From: Chloroflexota bacterium
GTDB taxonomy: Bacteria; Chloroflexota; UBA6077; JAJPHF01
Direction of reading: 5' to 3'
Length of the DNA stretch: 32,000 nucleotides
Assembly: GCA_035293805.1 (NCBI GenBank)
Contig: DATGMD010000046.1
Coordinates: forward strand, 1 to 32,000
This document shows positions 8,311-8,830 of the stretch, in pieces. Under the pieces are notes generated by a model. That model was not told the origin of the DNA. It worked only from the letters and a program-made list of their open reading frames with translations, and did not search any database. A program made the position numbers and the translations under genes. Numbering within the stretch: position 1 is the stretch's first letter; each line of letters opens with the position of its first letter.

Positions 8311-8830
8311 CGCCCGGCCACGCTGCAACGACTCTGTCGGGACGACCCGGCGGCGTTGGACGCGCTGGACAAGGCGATCACGGGTACACATGGCGGCGAT
8401 CACAAGTCCGAGGCGTACCAAGAAATCAAGCATAACAATGTAATGCTTGATTCTGAGGACAGTGTGGCTGTCGATCAGGGCAACAGCGAGCGCTACGCCC
8501 TGCGCCGCCTCCGCAACAAATGCGACGACTTGCACAAGCGCGTGCTGGCTGGGGAACTCATACCGAATCCGGAGGTGGCGTTCCCTTACTCCCTCTCCCC
8601 CTGGGAGAGGGTTGGGGTGAGGGCGCGTCTCGGTAGGCGAACCCCCGGGCCGGATCCGATAGCAGTGCCCACGCGGCGATGATCGAGGCGGGGTTTCGCC
8701 AGCGGACCGTCACGGTGGCGCCGCCAGTGGAGGGGCTGGCCAAGGCGCCGACCCGGTATCTCACCCCAGAGCAATGCGCCGCCGCCTCTGCTCCCCGCGC
8801 CCGAGAGGAGTTGAACGGTTCCCGCGGCGG
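8311..8830 (+). pseudogene. remnant of a phage/plasmid-type gene, lacking a proper start and split by a ~102-bp insertion (boundaries approximate)
   Basis: ORF 8356..8682 reads ..GNSERYALRRLRNKCDDLHKRVLAGEL then runs into repeat-derived sequence. ORF 8679..9002 begins MIEAGFRQRTVTV. Deleting 8560-8663 joins the frames as ..RVLAGELSAHAAMIEAGFRQRTVTV.. Confidence 0.5.
8561..8662 (+). mobile_element. MITE-like miniature insertion (~102 bp) with imperfect terminal inverted repeats and a hairpin/G-run core
   Basis: The termini are taccgaatccgg...ccggatccgatag; about 10 of 13 positions are complementary. The element is flanked by CA/CA. The core ctccctctccccctgggagagggttggggtgagggcg (8589-8625) is identical to 27018-27054. 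Confidence 0.6.

Follow-up and report, generated by a model that had tools for sequence, protein, structure and literature searches.

The window analysed here, a 32,000-nucleotide stretch of DNA from an uncultured Chloroflexota bacterium (G+C 70.7%), carries a gene that has been split into two pieces, 14 nt past the stop of a trypsin-like protease gene and ahead of a dctA-like symporter gene (8932-10362). The first open reading frame of the pair, 8356..8682 (frame 1), reads ..RVLAGEL and continues into IPNPEVAFPYSLSPWERVGVRA.. up to a stop at 8680-8682; its repeat-derived tail after ..RVLAGEL is IPNPEVAFPYSLSPWERVGVRARLGRRTPGPDPIAVPTRR. The second, 8679..9002, starts with MIEAGFRQRTVTV. Removal of 104 nt in silico (8560-8663 or an equivalent register) fuses the two ORFs into ..RVLAGELSAHAAMIEAGFRQRTVTV.., with ..DDLHKRVLAGELSAHAAMIEAGFRQRTVTVAPP.. 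as the product across the junction. The genes and gene fragments that matter here are:

2011-2496, reverse strand: SWIM-domain protein
2941-3930, forward strand: HNH_5 endonuclease-domain protein
8323..8559, forward strand: 5' piece of the split relic, aligning with residues ~77-150 of the homologues (tblastn, alignment), frame 1
8664..8786, forward strand: 3' piece of the split relic, aligning with residues ~150-190 of the homologues (tblastn, alignment), frame 3 and thus not that of the 5' piece
~10360-10824, reverse strand: N-terminal fragment of an IS66-family-like transposase (Pfam DUF6444; motif ..NSPTSSRPPSADPP..GRKHGGQPGH..)

The split gene and its homologues

Searching 5.8 billion proteins with the repaired protein returned ~120 relatives. 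Only the truncated ORF of 108 aa (P0001) matches at 100%, and no near-identical intact protein was found in this set; the other relatives are ~200 aa long and show local identities of 36-77%. We aligned 13 homologues (~200 aa, 37-48% identity), all of which run colinearly over the junction. V76, L77, E80, H84, A86, M87, G91, F92, and R93 are invariant in 13/13, and the junction motif VLAGELS[AP]HAAM[IV]EAGFR is nearly invariant. In tblastn searches the two pieces of the gene adjoin in the query and lie exactly 104 nt apart in the window. A MITE-like insertion into coding sequence, whose excision restores the frame, had been proposed from the letters and ORF translations alone (the sequence-only reading); the regained conserved motif, the spacing of the tblastn pieces and homologues that span the junction bear this out.

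The same alignments show that the N-terminal ~76 codons of the ~200-aa family are missing from the window. Since only residues ~77-190 are left, the host gene would be a relic even without the MITE, whichever of the two lesions came first, and the interrupted gene cannot be called intact. With its N-terminal third gone, the insertion probably has no phenotypic cost today. NCBI protein accessions are consecutive across the locus (HLH24401, protease; HLH24402, DctA), consistent with no protein having been called there. In JGI-derived sets, P0001 is kept as a predicted protein; its last ~40 residues are translated repeat, an example of a repeat-derived pseudo-protein. A consensus scan of 8200-9100 for promoters and terminators found none.

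The family matched nothing in Pfam, PHROGs, NCBIfam or a profile search of PDB, whether with the repaired protein or with its homologues. The three homologue contexts examined are prophage- or ICE-like replication modules, with integrase, SSB, Prim-Pol, ParB or methylase genes nearby; in two of them the homologue directly follows an SNF2/DEAD helicase with an HNH domain. These surroundings support the label of a mobile-element protein, in line with the phage or plasmid link first suggested for the family; that the protein binds DNA is a guess. The SWIM and HNH_5 genes, the relic gene and three IS/MITE remnants together suggest that an integrated element, now decayed, makes up ~1-10.8 kb of the window. 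The left end of the window is occupied by a DDE_5 IS (window 1-790, minus strand) that runs past the end of the window and covers 11707-13162 (~1456 bp) in L205; it encodes a 452-aa transposase (PF13546) between 21-bp terminal inverted repeats (CTAAGCTCGACTTTGGCCATT / AATGTCCAAAGTCGAGCTGAG). A resolvase fragment lies just past this IS. The IS66-like fragment abuts the 3' end of the symporter gene, within 2 kb of the MITE.

The locus with its insertion is 100% identical in contigs of two JGI samples and in the ENA and NCBI assemblies. The insertion is therefore not an assembly artefact. An empty allele (...GCTGGGGAACTCAGTGCCCACGCG...) was not found, every assembly that holds the locus being 100% identical.

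Ends, target duplication and copies of the inserted element

The insertion is bounded by terminal inverted repeats (TIRs) and flanked by a short target duplication (TSD). Its parts, and a second copy in the window, are:

8558..8560, forward strand: left TSD copy, TCA, overlapping the final bases of the 5' gene piece; flanks are T-N-A across the family
8561..8661, forward strand: MITE copy A, 101 bp; 8564-8661 (98 nt) is 97% identical to the family consensus
8561..8575, forward strand: left TIR, TACCGAATCCGGAGG (family consensus TATCGAATCCGCCGG)
8583..8625, forward strand: REP-type bipartite hairpin core, which recurs alone in unrelated contexts
8583-8590 and 8616-8623, forward strand: outer stem of the hairpin, CCCTTACT / GGTGAGGG
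8591-8599 and 8603-8611, forward strand: inner 9-bp stem, CCCTCTCCC / GGGAGAGGG, with a 3-nt loop
8645..8661, forward strand: right TIR, CCGGGCCGGATCCGATA
8662..8664, forward strand: right TSD copy, changed from TCA to GCA by a T to G substitution
19189..19289, reverse strand: second MITE copy of the window (copy B), 101 bp and diverged; its TIRs are degenerate and it is flanked by GGA/TGA; intergenic

Homologues require CTC AGT (L-S) at the junction, which identifies TCA as the original target, and a 101-nt element and a 3-nt duplication together account in full for the 104 nt whose removal the homologues call for. The sequence-only reading had drawn a 102-bp element with a CA duplication; this gives the same 104 nt and places the boundary one base off. 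Its imperfect TIRs and 9-bp GC hairpin core are both present in copy A, where the TIRs extend over ~15-17 nt and match at 11/17 positions. The element has no coding capacity. Folded whole as single-stranded DNA it is no more stable than shuffled sequences (z = -0.35), and the central hairpin alone stands out. Rfam 15 gave no match at gathering score in the window, and sub-threshold noise only for 8300-8900.

Copies elsewhere were sought by scanning metagenomes with the exact 35-mer of the hairpin core; the 69 loci obtained were divided into classes by their flanks. Ten share more than the hairpin and have the form TATCGAATCCGCCGGTGGAGTTCCCTTACT-core-CGTCTCGGTAGGCGAACCCCCGGGCCGGATCCGATA. All ten come from Centralia-type soil samples that also hold the window locus, on contigs of the series Ga0070738 and Ga0209062 with 69-76% G+C. 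Given the shared samples and similar G+C, these copies may stem from the window's genome. Of the ten, five have a single hairpin (100-101 nt) and agree with the consensus at 97-99% identity, three have two hairpins and measure 143-152 nt, another is truncated, and the last (L052) is a nested composite of 237 nt.

Leaving out the truncated copy (L035), 11 TIR-bounded copies can be compared: A and B of the window and nine from metagenomes. They lie at unrelated loci with differing flanks and have the termini TATCGAATCCGCCGG / CCGGGCCGGATCCGATA in common. The tips TATCGAATCCG / TATCGGATCCG match as inverted repeats at 10/11 positions in the family, and the TIRs of consensus copies at 12/17, ungapped. 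Left and right 3-nt flanks agree fully in 7 of the 11 copies and at two of three bases in the other four, against 0, 2, 0, and 0 perfect matches of 11 at shifted control offsets. The triplets that are duplicated (TCA, TTA, and TGA) follow the pattern T-N-A, which is found on at least one side in 11/11. Shared termini and a flanking duplication in other copies, proposed as a check on the original idea, are thus present. TGA sites account for four of the 11 copies (five with truncated L035), which would agree with insertion at stop codons or close by, or with persistence at such sites. Homologue support for an interrupted reading frame upon in-silico excision was obtained at copy A only. Copy B lies in intergenic sequence immediately downstream of the gene at 16830-19124, which encodes a family B DNA polymerase with an RNase_H_2/exonuclease domain.

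The nested copy supplies an empty site from within the family. At L052 172-408 (reverse orientation), a 101-nt copy sits inside a diverged two-hairpin copy that is itself flanked by TGA/TGA. The insertion point is the TTA of the family's own CCCTTACT, so the consensus acts as the empty site, and a 3-bp duplication fits: the 3-bp model restores GTTCTCTTAGTCCCC, like the family's own GTTCCCTTACTCCC.

Two broader scans returned chance matches. The 17-mer left end TATCGAATCCGCCGGTG hit at least 115 loci among genome contigs, with identity stopping at 17-20 nt; as all of these are chance matches, they have no bearing on the presence of the element in reference genomes. A degenerate TSD+TIR pattern gave eight chance matches in viral contigs, none with the MITE or paired ends. 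The element is shorter than ~300 bp, non-coding and TIR-bounded, with a constant TSD and copies at unrelated loci; apart from a partner IS, these are the structural features by which prokaryotic MITEs are defined.

Transposition and the proposed partner transposase

TIRs, a TSD of fixed length, near-identical copies at unrelated sites and nesting constitute the signature of insertion by a DDE transposase. The element has inserted into the relic gene, and its family displays each of these features. It is likely that 8561-8661 is a non-autonomous MITE of the kind mobilised in trans by IS1031/IS5-type elements, with a TCA target in the relic gene. A DDE transposase supplied in trans would have bound both element ends and inserted the element at the TCA triplet within the L-S codons of ..GELSAHAAM... 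Staggered cuts of 3 nt, once filled in, would have produced the TCA duplication, the right copy of which would later have mutated to GCA, and the net gain of 104 nt would have shifted the frame and split the ORF.

The 3-bp T-N-A duplication across the family points to an IS5-type partner acting in trans, most likely of the IS1031-type subgroup. IS1031-type IS5 elements are bacterial relatives of PIF/Harbinger and Tourist. PMC1676026, citing Mahillon and Chandler, reports a 3-bp duplication and a T-N-A preference for the IS1031 subgroup of IS5, and PMC4482050 a TWA target for PIF/Harbinger elements. A search of ~465 kb of sequence, and of 8 kb flanking the window on each side, returned no autonomous IS with matching TIRs (TATCGAATCCGCC.../...GGCCGGATCCGATA). 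The adjoining DDE_5 IS is ruled out as the partner, its 21-bp TIRs being unrelated to the MITE ends. The IS66-like fragment was likewise dismissed, because the IS66 family makes 8-bp duplications.

Because no partner was found, the IS family is assigned from the length and target of the TSD, and to our knowledge the MITE termini (TATCG...) are unlike IS5-family ends. The MITE might thus be as described and its partner not IS5/IS1031-like; we judge this unlikely. IS3 subgroups, the IS30 family and IS982 are other DDE groups with 3-bp duplications, and an undescribed family could be added to them. IS3 elements end in TG..CA, and T-N-A is not the target of IS30 elements. T-N-A, present on at least one flank of all 11 copies, is the reported target preference of IS1031-type elements and, as TWA, of PIF/Harbinger relatives.

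MITEs derived from IS1031/IS5 and Tourist MITEs are likewise short, non-coding and TIR-bounded with a 3-bp T-N-A/TWA duplication, and likewise occur as near-identical multiple copies, mostly intergenic. The present family differs from these in that its internal part is a REP-type hairpin rather than IS-derived, that no IS5-type partner or matching IS end was found, and that TCA and TGA are as frequent as TTA. Bacterial MITEs that disrupt genes include Chunjie of Geobacter and MITEAba12 of Acinetobacter (reviewed in PMC10969869). These too combine TIRs with a TSD, measure 100-250 bp, lie inside a transcription unit or gene and come in size variants. They differ from the present element in sequence family, phylum (here Chloroflexota), TSD and target, which here is a defunct gene fragment.

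The hairpin core and other palindromic repeats

The hairpin core also occurs apart from the TIRs, in the window as well as elsewhere. The occurrence in the window is:

26899..27054, forward strand: three tandem hairpin-core units with a period of 56-57 nt, without TIRs

This array fills the spacer between the gene at 25500-26831 and a Fer4_11 gene (27058-27840). It is part of an operon with molybdopterin oxidoreductase, Fer4, NrfD, ActD, and cytochrome c genes that adjoins cox genes and looks like an alternative-complex-III operon. Another 61 metagenome occurrences of the 35-mer CCCTCTCCCCCTGGGAGAGGGTTGGGGTGAGGGCG are on contigs of 40-74% G+C, and 0/61 have the MITE termini; an inverted partner lies within 160 nt in 31 of them and a direct partner in 15. 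When the plasmid collection was searched with the consensus, no record covered at least 80% of the element, and the central ~40 nt alone matched, at 80-95% identity, in Azospirillum and Variovorax and in a chromosomal segment of Klebsiella/Citrobacter type that lies between ppiC and ilvC. The palindrome is non-coding and conserved across apparently distant hosts.

Transposition is accordingly shown for the TIR-bounded form only, since the core occurs elsewhere without TIRs. The claim of a mobile hairpin repeat family in this genome stands for that form; it does not extend to the core, which is found bare in the array at 26899-27054, in REP/BIME-like pairs and in proteobacterial replicons.

REP/BIME/REPIN repeats, which are RAYT-associated, likewise have a bipartite GC hairpin, form tandem or inverted arrays, lie between genes of operons and occur in many bacteria. 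Spread of the whole element as a REP/REPIN palindrome, by a RAYT (HUH/Y1) or by REP-REP recombination instead of TIRs and a DDE enzyme, is nevertheless very unlikely. Such spread would account for the REP-type hairpin of the central ~43 nt, the tandem arrays of the window, the inverted pairs in 31/61 unrelated metagenome occurrences, the position of the hairpin between convergent genes in Klebsiella/Citrobacter-derived DNA and its presence in Azospirillum and Variovorax replicons, and for a GTAG directly 5' of the palindrome in copy B. REP/REPIN repeats and IS200/IS605-type mobilisation involve neither TIRs nor target duplications, and the element at 8561-8661 has both. The same TIRs lie outside the hairpin in 11 copies, seven of them with perfect 3-nt direct repeats, while hairpin-only copies lack these termini. 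No RAYT-like Pfam match was found among the 20 window ORFs scanned. The core itself behaves in a REP/BIME-like manner (compare the descriptions of such repeats in PMC3733652 and PMC2817692).

Correia/NEMIS, RUP, and other IS630-type MITEs are likewise ~100-150 bp long, TIR-bounded and abundant, but have a TA duplication. A Stowaway-like MITE of this kind (IS630/Tc1-mariner), with TCGAATCC...GGATCCGA as the element, would agree with consensus copies, which are bounded as TA-TCGAATCC...GGATCCGA-TA; the window copy fits at its right end only, as its left end is TACCGAATCC and not TATCGAATCC. A 2-bp duplication cannot give the 104 nt that the homologues require. It also leaves five extra bases at the nested L052 site, where CCCTTACT is restored under the 3-bp model only, and bases outside the TA are repeated on both sides too (TCA/TCA, TTA/TTA). 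We therefore reject the TA model for 8561-8661 as highly improbable. Rickettsia palindromic elements (RPEs) are likewise palindromic repeats within protein-coding sequence; they are in frame and translated, whereas the 104-nt net insertion here shifts the frame and truncates the ORF at the stop at 8680-8682, which excludes an RPE-like insert. The alternative that chance or a chimeric assembly produced the restored frame, from two ORFs that never formed a single gene, can be practically dismissed: one deletion in three restores some frame and high-GC DNA is rich in long spurious ORFs, but the junction recreates a near-invariant motif of 13 homologues at contiguous query coordinates, and several assemblies, made from differing samples with differing pipelines, carry an identical sequence.

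A TIR-bounded MITE carrying a REP-type core recalls QMITE2 of Coxiella, whose members resemble REPs once they lose DRs and TIRs (PMC5896051, as relayed in PMC10969869). In both cases the boundary between MITE and REP is blurred; QMITE2 is unrelated in sequence, larger, and has DRs of 7-9 bp. The descent of TIR-less arrays from MITEs is a route described for QMITE2 (PMC10969869).

The MITE at 8561-8661 belongs to an undescribed family of a well-known kind and is a clean example that involves no new mechanism. Since the sequence of the empty site can be read from a conserved protein motif, the insertion is cleanly documented. A MITE family with defined ends and TSD is now recorded for an uncultured soil Chloroflexota lineage, and part of the GC-hairpin repeats of this genome has moved by transposition. 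For annotation, the MITE explains two spurious ORFs and marks a pseudogene. The REP-type core in a transposon shell is the only non-routine feature; it bears on the origin and spread of REP-like repeats. As a tentative proposal, a REP-type palindrome that otherwise occurs TIR-less from Enterobacteria to Chloroflexota may have been captured between transposon ends and so gained a second, DDE-dependent route of spread; in the opposite direction, decay of the MITEs may seed the TIR-less arrays within operons; the one-, two-, and nested-hairpin variants would then represent modular growth. If this is true, MITEs could both carry REP-like repeats between phyla and give rise to them.
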